DNA of 8,362 nt from Clostridiales bacterium (GTDB lineage Bacteria > Bacillota > Clostridia > Oscillospirales > Oscillospiraceae), in assembly GCA_012718935.1 (NCBI GenBank), contig JAAYBH010000002.1:1-8362 (forward strand), given 5' to 3'. A model generated the notes under the pieces. That model did not search any database. It was not told the DNA's origin and saw only the letters and a program-made list of their open reading frames with translations. Position 1 is the first letter of the stretch. Each line of letters starts with the position of its first letter. This document shows, one piece after another, positions 307 to 8,275 of this stretch. Made by a program: the position numbers and the translations under genes.

Positions 307-2415
307 TTATAATTTGCTTGTCTTTAAAACACGCATTGCGTTTAAGACTGTGATGACGGTGACGCCGACGTCGGCGAAAACGGCTTCCCAGATGGTGGCG
401 ATTCCGCCGGCGCCCAGGGCCAGGACGATCAGCTTGACGGCCAGGGCGAAAGCAATGTTCTGCCAGACGATCTGGTGCGTGCGCTTTGCAATTTTCACGG
501 CGGTGACAAGCTTTGAGGGCTCATCGGTCATGATAACGATATCGGCGGCTTCGATGGCCGCGTCGGAGCCGACGCCGCCCATGGCGATCCCCACATCCGC
601 CCGCGCCAGCACCGGCGCGTCGTTGATGCCGTCGCCCACATAAACAAGCTTGCCGCCCCGGGGCTTTGACGCGTCCAGCCTTTCCAGCTCCGCGACCTTC
701 TGGTGGGGCAGCAGCTCCGAAGCCACTTCATCCAGACCCAGATCGCGGCCGATCTGACTGCCGACGGCTTTACTGTCGCCGGTGAGCATGACGAGCCGCC
801 GGATACCGAGCTTTCTGAGCGCTTCGACGGCGCTTTTGCTGTCTTCCTTCAGATGATCGGAGATGACGATATACCCCGCAAACGCGCTGTCCAGCGCAAT
901 GTAAACGACGGTGCCCGTCTCTTTCCCTTCGGAAAATGCAATCTGACGGCTTTCCATGAATCGCGCGTTTCCCGCCAGCACCTGACGGCCATTGACATCA
1001 GCCCGGACGCCGTATCCCGCTATTTCTTCCACATTGCTGACGGAGCTTTTGTCGATCTCCCTGCCCCAGGCCTTCAGGATCGACTGCGCGATGGGATGGG
1101 TCGACCAGCTTTCAGCGTATGCAGCGTACTCCAGAAGGTCAATACCAGCGGCGTTTTCGGTACGGTGTACCTTCGTCACCTCAAAGACGCCTTTGGTGAG
1201 CGTCCCGGTTTTATCGAAGATGACGGTGTCGACCCCGCGGAGGGCTTCAAGGTAATTGCTCCCCTTGATGAGGATGCCGTTTTTCGACGCGCCGCCGATA
1301 CCGCCGAAAAAGCTCAGCGGAATGGAGATGACCAGTGCACAGGGACAGGAGACGACGAGAAAGACGAGCGCCCTGTGAATCCACTCAGGAAACGCGGCGC
1401 CGGTCAGGAGCGGCGGGAGGACTGCCAGCAGCACGGCGAAGGCGACGACAGCCGGCGTGTAATACCGCGCGAATTTCGTAATAAAGTTTTCGGTGGGGGC
1501 TTTTTTGCTGCTGGCGTTCTGTACCAGGTCAAGGATTTTTGACACCGTAGATTCGCCGAATTCCTTTGTGACCTCCACGGCCAAAAGGCCGTTGACGTTG
1601 ACGGAGCCGGACAGCACCTCGCAACCGGTCTCGACGTCACGCGGCATAGATTCGCCGGTCAGCGCCGACATGTCGAGTACGGACCGTCCTTCGGTGACTA
1701 TGCCGTCCAGGGGTACCTTTTCACCGGGCTTGACGAGAATGATGTCCCCGACGCGGATCTCCCCGGGGGACACCCTCTTCTCCCCTTCGCCCGTCTTCAG
1801 ATTCGCGTAATCGGGACGGATATCCATCAGCGCAGCAATAGATTTCCTGGAACGGCTGACAGCCATGTCCTCAAAGAACATACCCACCTGATAAAAGAGC
1901 ATAACCGCGACCCCCTCCGGGAATTCGCCGAGGGCGAACGCCCCGACAGTGGCGACGCTCATGAGGAAATTTTCGTCGAAAACCCTGCCCTTGACAAGGT
2001 TCCTGCCGGCCATGAGCAGGATTTCGCCGCCGGCGAGAAGATACGCGGCCAGGTAAAATCCGAATTTGACCCGGAACGGAAAGCCGGATACAAGCGCAAT
2101 AATGAATAAAACGGCGCTTGCGGCTGTGAGACCGATTTTTATTTTATTAATGTTTGTTTCGGGGTGCCTTCCTGACTGCCCCTTTTCAATGACCCTGATC
2201 CCCGACTCGACCCGCCGGGCGATGGCCGACGCTTTATAAACAATATCGTCCATATCGTCCCAGCCGCCGGCTTCGATCGTCAGTTTTTTTGAGATAAAAT
2301 CGACGGCGGCATATGTAACGTCCGGCAGTTGACCCACTTCCCTTTCAATCCTGGCCGCGCAGCCGGCGCAGCCCAGGCCGTCGAGTATCAGTTCTTTTCT
2401 TGCGGTACTCGTCAT
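307..2415 (-). CDS. cadA: Heavy-metal translocating P1B-type ATPase, Zn2+/Cd2+/Pb2+ (CadA/ZntA) subtype
   Basis: The 702-aa ORF has an N-terminal HMA domain with CxxC (GLGCAGCAARIE). It carries TGES, the transmembrane CPC motif (SCPCALVIS), DKTGTLT, the HP motif (LPHQK) and GDGINDAP. The C-terminal membrane signatures QNIAFALAVK and FADVGVTVITVLNAMR (Lys and Asp-x-Gly) are typical of the Zn/Cd/Pb P1B-2 group rather than Cu pumps. RBS GAGG lies 6 nt before the ATG, and the gene is 13 nt downstream of cadC. Confidence 0.95.
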   Translation of the reverse strand: MTSTARKELILDGLGCAGCAARIEREVGQLPDVTYAAVDFISKKLTIEAGGWDDMDDIVYKASAIARRVESGIRVIEKGQSGRHPETNINKIKIGLTAASAVLFIIALVSGFPFRVKFGFYLAAYLLAGGEILLMAGRNLVKGRVFDENFLMSVATVGAFALGEFPEGVAVMLFYQVGMFFEDMAVSRSRKSIAALMDIRPDYANLKTGEGEKRVSPGEIRVGDIILVKPGEKVPLDGIVTEGRSVLDMSALTGESMPRDVETGCEVLSGSVNVNGLLAVEVTKEFGESTVSKILDLVQNASSKKAPTENFITKFARYYTPAVVAFAVLLAVLPPLLTGAAFPEWIHRALVFLVVSCPCALVISIPLSFFGGIGGASKNGILIKGSNYLEALRGVDTVIFDKTGTLTKGVFEVTKVHRTENAAGIDLLEYAAYAESWSTHPIAQSILKAWGREIDKSSVSNVEEIAGYGVRADVNGRQVLAGNARFMESRQIAFSEGKETGTVVYIALDSAFAGYIVISDHLKEDSKSAVEALRKLGIRRLVMLTGDSKAVGSQIGRDLGLDEVASELLPHQKVAELERLDASKPRGGKLVYVGDGINDAPVLARADVGIAMGGVGSDAAIEAADIVIMTDEPSKLVTAVKIAKRTHQIVWQNIAFALAVKLIVLALGAGGIATIWEAVFADVGVTVITVLNAMRVLKTSKL

Positions 2416-2428
2416 AGTTTTCCTCTTC

Positions 2429-2797
2429 CTATTGCTCTTTGATATGTGTTAAGCCCTGGTCGAGAATCTGCCGGATGTGCTCGTCGTCCAGCGAATAGTA
2501 TACAATTTTGCCTTCCTTCCGGTGCCGGACAAGCCTCGCCTGCTTCAGCACCCGCAGCTGATGGGAAATGGCTGACTGCGTCATACCCAGCAATACGGTG
2601 ATGTCGCACACGCACATCTCCGCCTCCGTCAGCGCCCACAGGATTCGCATCCGCGTGGAATCACCGAACACTCTGAACAGCTCGGAAAGCTCGAAAAGCA
2701 ACGGTTCCTCCGGCATTTTAAGCCTGACAGCGTTCACAACATCCTCATGGATGACGCTGCAGGCGCATTTGTAAATGTCGTTCTTGCCCTGTTTCAT
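2429..2797 (-). CDS. cadC: ArsR/SmtB-family metal-sensing repressor, CadC type
   Basis: The 122-aa ORF contains ELFRVFGDSTRMRILWAL, the winged-HTH segment MCVCDITVLLGMTQSAISHQLRVL, and YYSLDDEHIRQIL. This closely parallels S. aureus pI258 CadC (ELCVCDIANILG, YSLGDEHIRQIM). It has N-terminal Cys pair C-A-C plus the CVC pair (alpha3N thiolate site) and C-terminal D/H...H/E residues (alpha5 site). RBS AAGAGGAG lies 6 nt before the ATG. Confidence 0.93.
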   Translation of the reverse strand: MKQGKNDIYKCACSVIHEDVVNAVRLKMPEEPLLFELSELFRVFGDSTRMRILWALTEAEMCVCDITVLLGMTQSAISHQLRVLKQARLVRHRKEGKIVYYSLDDEHIRQILDQGLTHIKEQ

Positions 2798-2819
2798 ATG
2801 TGACTCCTCTTTACATGAA

Positions 2820-2843
2820 TATATGAATAACCGTTCATGCGTT
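2820..2843. promoter_or_regulatory. CadC/SmtB-type operator, proximal copy (between the -10 and the RBS of cadC)
   Basis: TATATGAATAACCGTTCATGCGTT contains the dyad TGAA-N6-TTCA (2824-2837). This is the core of the imperfect 12-2-12 inverted repeats bound by ArsR/SmtB repressors. Its position overlaps the start of the cadC transcript. Confidence 0.6.
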
Positions 2844-2851
2844 ATGCCGTC

Positions 2852-2880
2852 ATTATATGTGTGAATTTCGCGTTTGTCAA
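2852..2880 (-). promoter_or_regulatory. cadCA promoter (consensus sigma-A)
   Basis: On the minus strand, TTGACA (2875-2880) is followed by an exact 17-nt spacer and TATAAT (2852-2857), about 55 nt upstream of the cadC ATG. Confidence 0.7.
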
Positions 2881-2884
2881 CAAG

Positions 2885-2908
2885 TATATGAATGATTGTT
2901 CATGTGTT
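2885..2908. promoter_or_regulatory. CadC/SmtB-type operator, distal copy (upstream of the cadCA -35)
   Basis: TATATGAATGATTGTTCATGTGTT matches the proximal copy at 20 of 24 positions and keeps the same TGAA-N6-TTCA dyad (2889-2902). It is offset from the proximal copy by exactly 65 bp. Confidence 0.5.
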
Positions 2909-3325
2909 CGATTGTATGGGAATATATCCACATGGCAAACATATCCGGTTGCCATGGCCTCGCGGCTGCAATAAGATAGAGTTGCAGATAACGCCGAGCC
3001 AAGCCCGCAGAGAGAGAAACGGAAGGTGTAACGACTGGACACGGAGCAACTCACGAAGTTGAAGGCACAGTCTGAGCTGCATGGCGACATGCAGAGTTAT
3101 GCAGAAATGACATAGCCACGCTTAAAGCGGAGTAACAAGCCTGAACCGAAGCATCTGACGATTTTGCGCCTACACAAGAGCCCCCCGCAGCCGAGGCCCC
3201 TGAATTAGCTTCCGCACCATACGAAGACTCAGGAGGATTAAATATCGAACCGACGGTGATGTATTGCCCTTCTATATGGCGACATATATGACGCACTCCG
3301 TAAATTCGGCGAAAGTCTGCAATAG

Positions 3326-3406
3326 GAAGCCGCGAAAGTGGCTTCCTATTTAGAAGCCGCGAAAGTGGCTTCCTATTTAGAAACCGCGAAAGTGGCTTCC
3401 TATTTA
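3326..3406 (+). repeat. Tandem repeat, 27 nt x 3 (plus 5 nt of a fourth unit), each unit a GAAA-tetraloop hairpin
   Basis: The unit is GAAGCCGCGAAAGTGGCTTCCTATTTA at 3326-3352 and 3353-3379, which are identical. The copy at 3380-3406 has one G-to-A change. Each unit folds as GGAAGCCGC-GAAA-GUGGCUUCC. The first copy extends to a 13-bp stem (3321-3350). Confidence 0.9.
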
Positions 3407-3437
3407 GAAAGAACGAGGTAACAAACGTGATATGGTC

Positions 3438-3517
3438 GTAGGGGCCGGTTCCAAACCGGCCCACTCTTTTCGGCGTGGTGCGGCACGGGAATGGGCGGGT
3501 TTGGAACCCGCCCCTAC
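3438..3517. repeat. Inverted pair of 26-nt GTAG-palindrome (REP-like) elements separated by 28 nt
   Basis: The left element is GTAGGGGCCGGTTCCAAACCGGCCCA (3438-3463, + orientation). The right element is GTAGGGGCGGGTTCCAAACCCGCCCA (reverse complement of 3492-3517). They match at 24 of 26 positions. The two differences are the two partners of a single stem base pair (C-G in one, G-C in the other). Confidence 0.6.
3442..3470 (+). terminator. Intrinsic terminator closing the candidate RNA
   Basis: GGGCCGGTT (3442-3450) pairs with AACCGGCCC (3454-3462) to give a GC-rich 8-9-bp stem, followed by CTCTTTT (3464-3470). Confidence 0.55.
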
Positions 3518-3527
3518 GGTATTTATG

Positions 3528-3962
3528 TCAACCTTGCGATAACAATGCTCTTAATCTCTCCTCAAAGGCCTTATCCTGCGCGGGGGTGCGTTTTGCGGGG
3601 CCTTTCAGGCGGCCGCCGGCACTGCGGATTTTCCGGGCGGTGTGCCGGGACATCAGCAGCGCGTCGATGTTTTTATCCGAGTATACCATGCCGTCCTGAT
3701 TCAACGGCACAGCGCCGCGGGCAAGGCACATGGCAGCGAGGCCGTAATCCTGCGTCACGACGATATCGCTGGGCAAAAGCATATTGACGAGGGCGAAATC
3801 GACACTGTCGGCGCCCTTTGAAAACGTCAGCGTTTGAGCGCCTTCCTTCTCAAAAACATGCGCTGTGTCACACAGGATGAGGCATTCGATTCTGCTTTGT
3901 CTTGCCAATCGGACGGCGATATCCGTCACCGGGCAGCCGTCGGCATCAATAAGAATGCGCAT
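3528..3962 (-). CDS. YaiI/YqxD family protein (UPF0178, DUF188)
   Basis: The 144-aa ORF starts MRILIDADGCPV. It continues with GADSVDFALVN, DIVVTQDYGLAA, GAVPLNQDG and a basic C-terminal tail, colinear with E. coli YaiI as I remember it (IWVDADACP, GFDVADNEIV, DLVITADIPLAA, GAAALNPRG). RBS AGGAG lies 6 nt before the ATG. Confidence 0.88.
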   Translation of the reverse strand: MRILIDADGCPVTDIAVRLARQSRIECLILCDTAHVFEKEGAQTLTFSKGADSVDFALVNMLLPSDIVVTQDYGLAAMCLARGAVPLNQDGMVYSDKNIDALLMSRHTARKIRSAGGRLKGPAKRTPAQDKAFEERLRALLSQG

Positions 3963-3988
3963 GGTTTTCTCCTATAACGTTTTTTATC

Positions 3989-3997
3989 ATTCTATCA
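3989..3997 (-). promoter_or_regulatory. Possible extended -10 promoter for the DUF188 gene
   Basis: The minus strand reads TGATAGAAT (TGn + TAGAAT) about 27 nt upstream of the ATG. No good -35 hexamer is present. Confidence 0.3.
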
Positions 3998-4019
3998 CAA
4001 ATATGCGTTGGCTTGGTAT

Positions 4020-4047
4020 TTGCATCGGCGGAAACATGAGGTATAAT
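4020..4047 (+). promoter_or_regulatory. Sigma-A-type promoter for the URO-D family gene
   Basis: TTGCAT (4020-4025) is followed by a 16-nt spacer and TATAAT (4042-4047), about 38 nt upstream of the ATG at 4086. The RBS is AAGGAGA. Confidence 0.6.
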
Positions 4048-4085
4048 AGGGACATAAACGCATTGACAGAAAAGGAGACAGAAGA

Positions 4086-5099
4086 ATGCTGACAGCCAAA
4101 GAAAATTTCCTGAAATGCCTGCGCGGAGAGACGCCGGAATGGGTACCGATCTACTCCATGGGTATGATGTTCGACGGTGACAACCCGCCGCCGGATATGC
4201 TGGTTGAACCGCTTATTATCAGCGAGCACCGGGTCAGGGGCGGCGGCCCCGATGTGTGGGGTGTGGAATATGTGCCAACAGAATCCACCAGCGGCGCGCT
4301 TATCCCAGCCAATGATAAATTCATTCTGGACGATATAACCAAGTGGCGCGATGTCATCAAGGCCCCCGACCTCTCGGGCGTCGATTGGGAGAAAATGTGC
4401 AGGGAGGATATCGAGCGCCGGAAACTCGACCGCTCCAAAACAACCGTTTGCATGAATCTGCATATGGGTTACTTTCAGACACTGATGTCTTTCATGGGTT
4501 TCACAAACGGCCTGTGCGCCATGTACGAGGAACCGGAAGAAGTCAAGGCCCTTTTTGAATACCTCTGCGACTTTTATTGCACGGTCGCCGAAAAATATGT
4601 GGATCACTGCAAGCCCGACGTCTGGACGATGATGGACGACACAGCGGCGTGGGCGAACCCCTTCATCTCCCCGGCTATGTACCGCGAGTTTCTGATCCCG
4701 CTCTACATCCGCCAGGCCAAGTTCGGCCGCGACAGGGGCCTCCCCATATCGATGCACAACTGCGGCAAATGTGAGGGCTTCCTGGACGACCTTGTGAAAA
4801 TCGGCGTCACCATGTGGGACCCGGCACAGACGTGCAATGATCTGGTCGGTATCAAGAAAAAGTACGGCAACAAGCTCGTCATCGCCGGCGGTTGGGACGC
4901 CCAGGGCCGCATTCTTCAGGACGACGTGACCTACGAGGAAATTTACGAATCCGTCAAAAAGCAAATGGACCTTCTGGCCCCCGGCGGCGGCTACTGCTTC
5001 CTTGGCGGCTTCCTGGCCAACAAGGGCGACGAAAACGTCGTGAAGAAAAACGCCATGCTCTACAAAGCCTACAACGCGCTCTGCAGAAATTATTACTGA
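4086..5099 (+). CDS. Uroporphyrinogen decarboxylase (URO-D) family protein, MtaA/CmuA-like methyltransferase type
   Basis: The 337-aa ORF has the N-terminus ENFLKCLRGETPEWVP typical of URO-D/MtaA-like proteins and a TIM-barrel-sized length. It carries a His-x-Cys...Cys pattern (MHNCGK at about residue 223, GGYCFLGG near the C-terminus) resembling the zinc site of MtaA-type methylcobamide methyltransferases. The substrate cannot be inferred. Confidence 0.85.
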   Translation: MLTAKENFLKCLRGETPEWVPIYSMGMMFDGDNPPPDMLVEPLIISEHRVRGGGPDVWGVEYVPTESTSGALIPANDKFILDDITKWRDVIKAPDLSGVDWEKMCREDIERRKLDRSKTTVCMNLHMGYFQTLMSFMGFTNGLCAMYEEPEEVKALFEYLCDFYCTVAEKYVDHCKPDVWTMMDDTAAWANPFISPAMYREFLIPLYIRQAKFGRDRGLPISMHNCGKCEGFLDDLVKIGVTMWDPAQTCNDLVGIKKKYGNKLVIAGGWDAQGRILQDDVTYEEIYESVKKQMDLLAPGGGYCFLGGFLANKGDENVVKKNAMLYKAYNALCRNYY

Positions 5100-5121
5100 G
5101 CAGCATCGATATGTGACGATG

Positions 5122-5147
5122 GGAGGGATTCTGATCCCTCCTTCTTC
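5122..5147 (+). terminator. Intrinsic terminator after the URO-D family gene
   Basis: GGAGGGAT (5122-5129), loop TCTG, ATCCCTCC (5134-5141), followed by TTCTTC. Confidence 0.6.
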
Positions 5148-5207
5148 ATGCATCGACGCAGTCAGCCGACCTAATATTATTGCCACGGAATATTCATAAA
5201 CTCCCTC

Positions 5208-5238
5208 CTGCAATTGCCGCGGCGTCAAATGCTACAAT
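5208..5238 (+). promoter_or_regulatory. Possible extended -10 promoter with a dyad in the spacer, upstream of the MerR-family gene
   Basis: TGCTACAAT (5231-5238) is a TGn + TACAAT extended -10. The only -35 candidates are weak (CTGCAA/TGCAAT at 5208-5214, 18-19-nt spacing). The spacer contains the imperfect dyad TTGCCGCGGCGTCAA (5214-5228), with a perfect GCCGCGGC core. Confidence 0.35.
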
Positions 5239-8056: not shown

Positions 8057-8139
8057 GTTTAATTGTTTAAAGTGATATCAAAACGGAAGTACGTGGCGCC
8101 TTCCACAAAAAGCAGACTTGAAACAAAAGCTTCAATTTA

Positions 8140-8198
8140 AAGAAACCGGAAGCGAAGGCTTCCGCGAAAGAAACCGGAAGCCTTCGCTTCCGGTTTCT

Positions 8199-8199: not shown

Positions 8200-8275
<76 letters not shown>

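Follow-up and report, generated by a model that had tools for sequence, protein, structure and literature searches.

What occupies a long gap between two bacterial genes when the gap encodes no protein? The question is raised by the 8,362-nucleotide (nt) stretch of DNA analyzed here (the window; contig JAAYBH010000002.1), in which 730 base pairs (bp) free of open reading frames (ORFs) separate the start of cadC from the stop of a DUF188 gene (2798-3527). A preliminary description had correctly recognized this long gap and proposed that it specifies a large structured RNA on the + strand, with GNRA-capped helices and long-range pairings. Such an RNA is indeed specified there, and the strand was also assigned correctly; the individual hairpins, repeats, and complements were all recovered where they had been placed or close by. 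The RNA is not, however, a single new class of large non-coding RNA (ncRNA); its core is a group I intron, and the family to which this intron belongs is common in phages. Group I introns are textbook ribozymes, and their permuted form, which underlies current circular-RNA production, is regarded as a laboratory invention. The evidence presented below makes it highly probable that the window contains a group I intron and that the intron is in permuted order, its 5' third lying downstream of its 3' two-thirds.

Identity of the intron core

A sensitive blastn search of phage genomes matched only positions 3032-3144 of the window, in every case on the + strand. It picked up the intron of a split T4-like phage nrdD gene, where it lies between exon 1 and a homing endonuclease; the RNA polymerase beta gene of phage 201phi2-1, which is interrupted by an intron annotated as a mobile interruption; and the region following the capsid gene of a Lysinibacillus phage. 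An initial pattern made from P9.1 and the 3' motif matched no viral contigs, and a pattern taken from shared features of helices P9 and P9.1 led to 96 viral contigs in IMG/VR. The family profile, which was built from viral contigs only, matched 2980-3142 on the + strand with an E-value of 2.2e-33 (106.9 bits), and an nhmmer search against all viral loci found no family similarity left of about position 2966. We refer to the conserved 3' two-thirds of the intron as b, to its 5' third as a, and to the sequence between them as X; coordinates are collected in Table 1.

The structure used for covariation analysis extended from P2 to P9.2, including the P3/P7 pseudoknot, and the alignment consisted of the window and 27 non-redundant relatives. 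Overall, 81.6% of the cells were paired, compared with 63.5% in shuffles, none of 500 of which reached the observed value, and with 32-42% when the partners were slid. Compensatory changes were present in 45 of the 54 pairs, and P7, P9, and P9.1 were 99.5-100% paired across the family. The window retains 64 of the 75 family-conserved columns, with four of the 11 misses falling in a decayed flank; b itself differs at seven of its ~71 conserved columns, which is within the range of the family. All of the core helices can form (P3 5/5, P4 7/7, P5 6/6, P6 3/3, P7 5/5, and P8 5/5 pairs). In the relatives, the 3' splice site is a G that lies 4-8 nt past a conserved GUAACAA, as placed by the exon boundaries in related contig pairs (L084/L088, L108/L117, and L184/L137) and in L141; by analogy, G3143, 5 nt after GUAACAA, is the predicted 3' splice site of the window intron.

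The loop motif of P9.1, CAGAAAUGA (or CAGUAAUGA), is reused in related introns, being found at 3102-3110 in the window, at about 2438-2445 in L083, and at about 2366-2374 in L081. Mostly it occupies P9.1, but it is carried by a P6-like hairpin in 201phi2-1 and by P2 in the Lysinibacillus phage; its recurrence suggests a conserved tertiary-contact module. A related intron in soil-metagenome contigs L084 and L088 contains a LAGLIDADG-type ORF, frameshifted in L084, and lies ~50 codons past the start of a capsid-like gene; it ends in GAGUAACAACCCUGAUG.

Several elements of the preliminary description take on a different meaning once the core is recognized as an intron. The hairpins CTGCATG-GCGA-CATGCAG (3077-3094) and TATATG-GCGA-CATATA (3273-3288) do have the exact 10-mer ATGGCGACAT in common, but they are distinct intron helices, P9 and P2, respectively, and not a related pair. 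A 12-nt complement between 2956-2969 and 3187-3198 exists as sequence, but it is not the real long-range helix: the natural variant G3195A in L085 breaks it, and it sits in a hypervariable spacer. Its supposed competing local partner, CGCCGAGCC, is P4' of the intron.

The proposal of one novel ncRNA class of ~0.55 kb, under structural selection over its full length, was based on GNRA loops that are correct on the + strand only and gains from a fold z-score against shuffles of -4.8 for the whole block on the + strand (-2.0 on the - strand). Furthermore, no Rfam family gave a hit at its gathering threshold. Window-wide, the large ncRNA classes yielded none at these thresholds, E-value searches gave chance-level hits apart from a weak match to the group I intron model, and OLE, ROOL, GOLLD, raiA, and HEARO had no match up to E=10 within the block. 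The RNA is thus not OLE, ROOL, GOLLD, raiA, RNase P, tmRNA, or SRP RNA; the preliminary description had discounted the last three and had matched the RNA to none of the others. A decayed protein gene is not present either, as a six-frame protein search was without a homologue, which also eliminates a homing endonuclease or transposase remnant. However, the core is that of an established class of ribozyme, the closest relatives lack the block, and the middle third is unstructured and hypervariable. When divided, segment 3144-3320 had a z-score of +1.1 (+1.07) and segment 2914-3143 one of -1.85; the excess for the whole block stems from repeat hairpins, a palindrome, and the intron stems. Moreover, the three GAAA-capped hairpins, although real, are a recent 27-nt tandem repeat, and the G.U pair that they share, put forward as a sign of selection, reflects identity by descent (98% identity) rather than independent retention. 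The terminator was likewise confirmed as a hairpin and U-tract by a terminator scan, but it is an arm of a REP-like 30-nt inverted pair. The decisive evidence is homology rather than fold energy, and the homology results refute the idea of a single novel ncRNA.

The 5' third of the intron lies downstream

Reading the window in its native order, there is no proper P3 5' strand, J3/4, or J4/5 before P4. A 5'-module profile, spanning the splice site of the family to P4, matched 3271-3314 on the + strand, and the match includes P2, J2/3, CUCCG, UAAA, UUCGGCG, and AAAGU. The pairings that join this segment to b are complete: P3 is formed by 3296-3300 with 3042-3046 (5/5 pairs) and P4 by 3305-3311 with 2992-2998 (7/7), while CUGCAA after J4/5 repeats the P5 5' strand, and P5 has 6/6 pairs between the halves. 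The 11-mer CTGCAATA(A/G)GA is present at both 2966-2976 and 3317-3327, a terminal redundancy that marks the two ends. Joining 3230-3327 to 2977-3150 in silico gave one continuous match to the subfamily profile over positions 48-231 (108.6 bits), 14 bits more than the native order, which matched positions 77-231 (94.6 bits). L185 and L187, which are colinear, have these blocks of motifs side by side, with P5 alone between them. Neither the family profile nor the 5'-module profile detected a further intron module outside the unit. What remains intact therefore amounts to precisely one intron unit (2966-3327), which is opened in L5 and has its 3' splice site upstream of its 5' splice site; the colinear domain order within a host gene was not found, as the 5' third is downstream and there is no + strand host gene. 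The 5' splice site most likely follows U3257.

Whether the two halves belong together can be judged from the rest of the family. P3 and P4 were both compatible in only 1.4% of non-self family pairs, and, where natural tandem arrays could be read by eye, neighboring introns had a matching P3 at none of eight junctions. Compatibility is therefore rare and array neighbors are mismatched, which argues that the halves in the window belong to one intron. Arrays occur in phage genes of IMG/VR contigs (L092, L126, L138, L155, L180, L093, and L146), with three to five ORF-less group I introns of ~230-250 nt, with exons inside the arrays down to ~30-70 nt; neighboring introns differ in P3 and P4, as if avoiding cross-pairing.

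Two other arrangements were considered and discarded. Positions 2914-2965 had been a candidate for the intron's own 5' part, with a 4-bp P3 in a 5'-truncated intron, and were superseded by the downstream 5' module. Positions 3144-3430 are not a second full copy of the intron, as self-alignment and the family profile show no second core; only the 5' module, a P9.2-like hairpin, and a terminal motif are present there. Scans of viral contigs with two conserved stretches of 3241-3320 gave no hits.

The presence of additional sequence after GUAACAA also brings to mind an ORF-less IStron. In such an element, a group I intron is joined to an insertion sequence (IS) of the IS200/IS605 or IS607 type; here the transposase genes would have been lost, and transposition would have brought the element to the site. 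IStrons are found in Clostridia, are often intergenic, may be ORF-less and as short as 482 nt, and carry their IS part after a GAACAA-type motif (PMC4227781); the flanks here, ...TGGG and ...CGG, resemble those of group B IStrons. Nevertheless, the "extra sequence" is the intron's own 5' third, the six-frame search left no trace of TnpA or TnpB (E<=0.01), there is no similarity to IStron-bearing phage or plasmid records (where 3140-3440 is without a DNA match), and the element is single copy. IStron introns are of the IA2 type with P7.1 and P7.2 (PMC4227781), whereas only 9 nt separate the P7 5' strand from P8 in the window. An IStron is therefore very improbable and largely refuted.

Table 1. 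Coordinates of the intron modules, flanking elements, and neighboring genes in the window.
Feature	Position	Strand	Sequence, structure, or evidence
Intron 3' two-thirds (b)	2966-3143	+	Family profile, blastn, covariation
P5	2966-2971/2982-2987	+	Followed by J5/4
P4'	2992-2998	+	CGCCGAG
P6	3005-3007/3020-3022	+	3 bp
P7 5'	3033-3037	+	
P3'	3042-3046	+	CGGAG
P8	3047-3051/3057-3061	+	Followed by J8/7
P7 3'	3068-3072	+	
P9	3077-3094	+	GCGA loop
P9.1	3096-3116	+	Loop CAGAAAUGA
P9.2	3119-3129	+	
3' end motif	Ending G3143	+	GAGUAACAAGCCUG; predicted terminal G/3' splice site
Spacer or "exon" (X)	3144 to ~3257	+	Between 3' splice site (upstream) and 5' splice site (downstream)
Intron 5' third (a)	3258-3327	+	5'-module profile, P3/P4 pairing
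L1		+	GAUGUAUU, 8 nt
Internal guide sequence	3266-3272	+	GCCCUUC; abuts P2
P2	3273-3288	+	GCGA loop; followed by J2/3
P3 5'	3296-3300	+	CUCCG; followed by J3/4 UAAA
P4 5'	3305-3311	+	UUCGGCG; followed by J4/5 AAAGU
Second copy of P5 5' strand	3317-3327	+	CUGCAAUAGGA; 11-nt direct repeat
Upstream flank (a')	2914-2965	+	8-bp hairpin, 2931-2956
Promoter-like site	2949-2977	+	TTGCCA-17-TAAGAT; consensus scan, 9/12 matches
27-nt tandem repeat	3321-3409 (finder: 3326-3409)	+	3.1 copies, 98% matches; Tandem Repeats Finder
Second 3'-terminal motif	3417-3429	+	GGUAACAAACGUG; 11/13 identical to 3132-3144
REP-like inverted pair	3437-3466, 3489-3518	+, -	30-nt arms; GTAG head and G+C-rich palindrome
P-type ATPase	307-2415	-	
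ArsR/CadC-type repressor (cadC/arsR)	2429-2797	-	
DUF188/YaiI	3528-3962	-	
413-amino acid ORF	3987-5228	-	Directly upstream of DUF188
RNase Y gene		-	

The spacer between the splice sites

Depending on whether the 5' splice site is taken to follow U3257, U3245, or U3238, X is 114, 102, or 95 nt in length, and the first two of these three models give multiples of 3. X is where most variation occurs. Two metagenome contigs, L087 (99.7% identical) and L085 (98.6%), carry the permuted block at the same locus; L085 differs from the window at 17 sites over 456 nt, and 15 of these lie within 3146-3240, leaving two in the other 360 nt. L087 carries the window's version of X, and two forms of X thus co-occur in one sample, belonging either to two strains or to two units of one genome. 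X shows no unusual fold (z=+1.07), its changes do not keep the predicted stems, and no protein or DNA homologue was found for it, neither peptide form having a match. The variant in the window has no start codon in frame. One hypothesis is that X is an exon remnant that was swapped by recombination, with the near-identical intron halves acting as homology arms.

The pattern of change in X has a bearing on whether the locus holds a longer array, b-X-a-b-X-a and so on, that was collapsed in assembly; such an array would include at least one normal intron between exon-like repeats and would be a working + strand gene, or a fragment of one, for a repeat protein with one intron per repeat. The substitutions show a 3-nt periodicity, with nine of the 15 at one codon position; the + frame from 3145 is open in both forms, and both likely X lengths (114 and 102 nt) are divisible by 3. 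In addition, the two contigs break inside the block, differ in b (3115 and 3124), and differ strongly in X. However, a - strand frame fits the differences equally well, with 8 synonymous and 6 non-synonymous changes, and the X peptide is without a homologue. No start codon or upstream exon is present, the sequence left of 2914 being the cadC operator and promoter shared with the intron-less relative L001, and two co-existing strains would explain the contigs equally well. We consider such an array improbable. Two further ideas about X were rejected: hypermutation by a diversity-generating retroelement, as the window contains no copy of a template and the bias is toward third positions rather than adenines, and a spliced small ORF running from ATG 2837 or 2892 into the X frame, which is in frame by construction but for which no convincing P1 was found, the cadC operator being what lies upstream. 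The heptamer GAACCGA is directly repeated, once at the start of X (3143-3149, including the terminal G of the intron) and once near its end (3247-3253); it may be the trace of a repeated homing site or of a duplication.

Flanking pieces of the block

The upstream flank a' starts where similarity to L001 stops. The 8-bp hairpin reported there was confirmed (2931-2938/2949-2956), and the flank contains weak look-alikes of the P3 5' strand (UCCG, 2944-2947) and, with a bulge, of the P4 5' strand (CUCG[CG]GC, 2959-2966); on direct reading, its AUGGCAAACAUAU resembles AUGGCGACAUAU of P2. J4/5 is absent from a', the 5'-module profile had no hit in it, and nhmmer against viral loci found nothing. On these resemblances, to which the shared 11-mer can be added, a' is probably a decayed paralogue of the 5' module.

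Downstream of a, each copy of the 27-nt tandem repeat forms a 13-bp hairpin with a GAAA loop, and the repeat is identical in L085; the hairpin was not found in the other loci compared or in viral contigs. It is similar to the GCGAAAGC loops of L084 and L081, which suggests that it is probably the P9.2-like (GCGAAAG) hairpin from a second copy of the intron that suffered an internal deletion, the hairpin having been triplicated afterward. The second 3'-terminal motif is comparable to GUAACAAACGCG at the exon boundary of L141, and G3429 could serve as an alternative 3' splice site; the motif is short and may have arisen by chance.

With UCUUUU behind it, the left arm of the REP-like pair has the form of an intrinsic terminator (3442-3470) for transcripts of the + strand, and the right arm is also present in L001 and L002. 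Palindromes with a GTAGGGGCG head number two in the window, one in L001, three in L002 (plus one GTAGGAGC variant), and four in L006; their cores vary, yet they remain palindromic. Over all 80 loci compared, the 8-mer occurred 15 times against ~20-25 expected, i.e., it is not enriched, and the REP-like family is therefore limited to this clade. Downstream of DUF188, the intergenic regions of L002 (5340-5800) and L006 (4950-5300) are crowded with GTAGGGGCG-headed palindromes.

A second promoter-like site, TTGCCA-16-TACAAT (10/12 matches), lies on the - strand at 2938..2911, within the inserted block and facing cadC. Through it, the insertion may add read-through transcription over the cadC operators.

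The locus and its relatives

The window comes from the chromosome of an Oscillospiraceae bacterium near Papillibacter and Sporobacter, and the top match of its DUF188 protein, 89% identical, comes from a metagenome-assembled genome of Papillibacter. Searches of Pfam and NCBIfam with the 413-amino acid ORF gave no match. The promoter of cadC (- strand, 2880..2852) matches TTGACA-17-TATAAT perfectly, and it is flanked by two copies (2820-2843 and 2885-2908) of a 24-nt operator-like repeat, TATATGAAT..GTTCATG.GTT, conserved in L001 and L002. The operator and promoter thus reach 2908, and the unexplained portion of the gap begins at about 2909.

Among the 80 loci encoding DUF188 relatives that formed the comparison set, adjacency of cadC and DUF188 is kept only in L001 and L002. 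L001, with the 89% identical DUF188 and the same synteny, has ~190 bp in place of 730 bp: its order is operator, ~20 nt, right-hand palindrome, and DUF188, and the block is absent. Similarity between the window and L001 ends at about 2906-2913 and restarts at about 3473. L002 has ~420 bp of unrelated sequence at the same site, rich in GTAG-headed palindromes, which indicates that the site is a hotspot for REP-like elements and indels. The permuted block was found in neither of these two nor in the other 78 relatives, and a blastn search of plasmids gave no match to it. The best explanation is that the block (~2914-3472) is foreign DNA that descends from a compact group I intron without an ORF, whose family is common in phage genes.

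Elsewhere in the window, a 28-nt tandem repeat (1.9 copies, AAAGAAACCGGAAGCCAACGCTTCCGCG) with a GGAAGC..GCTTCC hairpin adjoins a - strand tRNA gene (8139-8192 and 8202-8275).

Origin, possible activity, and alternatives

How might such an arrangement have arisen? The family often has ORF-less introns in tandem, separated by very short exons, and we infer a tandem duplication of an intron with its exon, giving [a b X a b], after which the first a would have decayed and the second core would have been deleted. The block would then consist of two tandem intron copies with complementary damage, [a' b] X [a delta-b]: copy 1 would have retained b (2966-3143) while its 5' third decayed to a', and copy 2 would have retained a (3258-3327) and lost its core. 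The permuted element most likely arose recently, as a side product when phage-type introns in tandem recombined.

If active, the element would operate as follows. A + strand transcript would begin at the promoter-like site (2949-2977), or come from read-through, and would end at the hairpin and U-tract (3442-3470); within it, a and b would rebuild the group I core through P3, P4, and P5. Guanosine would attack the downstream 5' splice site, after which X, its 3' end now free, would attack the upstream 3' splice site and be closed as a small RNA circle. Promoter-like and terminator-like signals do bracket the unit on the + strand, with the predicted start near 2984 falling in the P5 3' strand, where the ring opens. 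Taken as a whole, a permuted intron derived from damaged tandem copies and possibly capable of back-splicing is somewhat favored as the best explanation. Its parts are not equally secure: that transcription and back-splicing take place in the cell is doubtful, and a selected host function is quite unlikely.

Several observations weigh against the permuted intron as proposed. The 5'-module match is modest (E=0.014 for the window alone). The P1 candidate, U3257.G3266, has a family-like geometry but only five pairs with one or two mismatches and is thus weak; three alternatives to it exist, with U3238 and U3245 as other possible 5' splice sites, P10 has only ~2 bp, and P6 has only three. Were the transcript to start further upstream, a' would supply competing P3, P4, and P5 strands, and the 2931-2956 hairpin would form. 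Promoter-like sites in the region number three, with 1.5 expected by chance, and are weak evidence. The permuted form is confined to one lineage and a single locus and is not conserved across diverged genomes. Within the one metagenome that yielded L085 and L087, the contigs end or start inside the block, and b and X each have two variants; a genome may therefore hold several units, or the assembly may have been collapsed. A search of the literature found no natural permuted group I intron, and the prior is correspondingly low. Finally, the score against the Rfam group I model RF00028 was 13.9-17.7 bits, where the gathering cut-off is 50, and the model aligned only J8/7-P7-P9. The low score reflects the weak coverage of the phage family by this model and the permuted order, and routine annotation would therefore miss the intron.

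The element may instead be inert debris, either a recently captured piece of a phage gene with tandem introns or a one-unit circle released from such a repeat and integrated illegitimately, that is decaying and is either untranscribed or unreactive, its permuted order being accidental and of no consequence at the RNA level; this is possible, although we hold it to be less probable than the reading given above. The abundance of tandem introns with very short exons in the family is in its favor, as is the absence of the block from the nearest relatives at the same site, with only a single locus known, at an indel hotspot (REP-like elements also being present in L002). Decay is ongoing in a' and in the deleted second core, and the block is changing faster than the flanking genes: relative to L087, three substitutions were found in ~440 nt of the block but only one in ~1,130 nt of flank. 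Against debris, however, neighbors in real arrays are non-cognate (0/8), whereas the halves in the window match perfectly, and a and b are as intact as working members of the family, whereas the remaining two halves have been lost. In the strain variants, a and b carry few substitutions, and these are structure-neutral: that at 3115 converts a U.G to a U-A pair in P9.1, that at 3124 falls in the P9.2 loop, and that at 3280 changes the P2 loop from GCGA to GAGA. In a', G2920A would convert a possible G.U to an A-U pair. The promoter-like and terminator-like signals that bracket the unit on the + strand also count against debris. All of these counter-points are nonetheless compatible with very recent debris.

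The opposite extreme is a working natural circularly permuted group I ribozyme, forming its own + strand unit and back-splicing X, in which the permuted form was selected and the redundant halves decayed; this we regard as unlikely. The sequence is compatible with either an active circle-making ribozyme or inert debris.

If the permuted-intron reading is correct, the window provides a natural case in which recombination between tandem introns can yield back-splicing ribozymes in bacteria, and bacteria may produce small circular RNAs in this way; it would also show that standard annotation, with Rfam at 17.7 bits against a 50-bit cut-off, overlooks both the phage intron family and rearranged copies. 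An inert copy would still document the arrival of a group I intron at an ectopic site outside genes in a chromosome, a process that has been described in a review as poorly evidenced (PMC3984707).

Comparison with known systems

The closest counterparts are the ORF-less group I introns of phages (T4 nrdD/sunY, the 201phi2-1 RNA polymerase beta gene, and capsid genes of Herelleviridae and of IMG/VR contigs), which have in common with the window the core from P3 to P9.2, the J8/7-P7 element, the GCGA loop of P9, the CAGAAAUGA loop of P9.1, and GUAACAA before the terminal G, as well as the same strand logic and a size of ~250 nt. The phage introns are colinear and inside protein genes, whereas in the window the 5' third comes last, the splice sites are reversed, and the element is intergenic in a bacterial chromosome and antisense to both neighbors. 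T4-type IA2 introns also have P7.1 and P7.2, both of which are lacking here.

IStrons (CdISt1 and BcISt1; PMC4227781) resemble the window element in occurring in Clostridia-type genomes at non-canonical, often intergenic sites, in having extra material past P9.2 and a GAACAA-like motif, and in including ORF-less forms of ~0.5 kb. The window differs in having no IS remnants, no P7.1 or P7.2, and a single copy, and in that its extra material is the intron's own 5' part. The palindromes in the window are like REP/REPIN (BIME) elements in their GTAG head, imperfect G+C-rich palindrome, intergenic location, presence in several copies, and compensated cores in relatives, and the window has them as an inverted doublet; in contrast to REP/REPIN elements, only a handful of copies exist in the sequence compared.

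Two systems are comparable in their rearranged order. Group I introns, including those of T4 td and Anabaena tRNA-Leu, have been engineered into permuted intron-exon (PIE) constructs that make circular RNA (PMC4344496, PMC13580324). Like the window element, these constructs consist of a 3' half with its 3' splice site, an "exon", and a 5' splice site with the 5' half, the ring being opened in a peripheral loop (L5 in the window). Group II introns in a circularly permuted (CP) form, with ~290 members in several phyla, have both covariation support and demonstrated activity (PMC8637638). PIE constructs are man-made with proven circularization, and CP group II introns are of another ribozyme class and chemistry, whereas the window element is natural, is represented by a single lineage, and has competing decayed strands upstream and a weak P1. 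With the CP group II introns, however, it shares a self-splicing type of ribozyme with rearranged domains, splice sites that are internal, reversed, and less than ~100 nt apart, a predicted small RNA circle, and the lack of an ORF. If it is a working ribozyme, it would be among group I introns what the CP introns are among those of group II, and PIE circular-RNA technology would have a precedent in nature.

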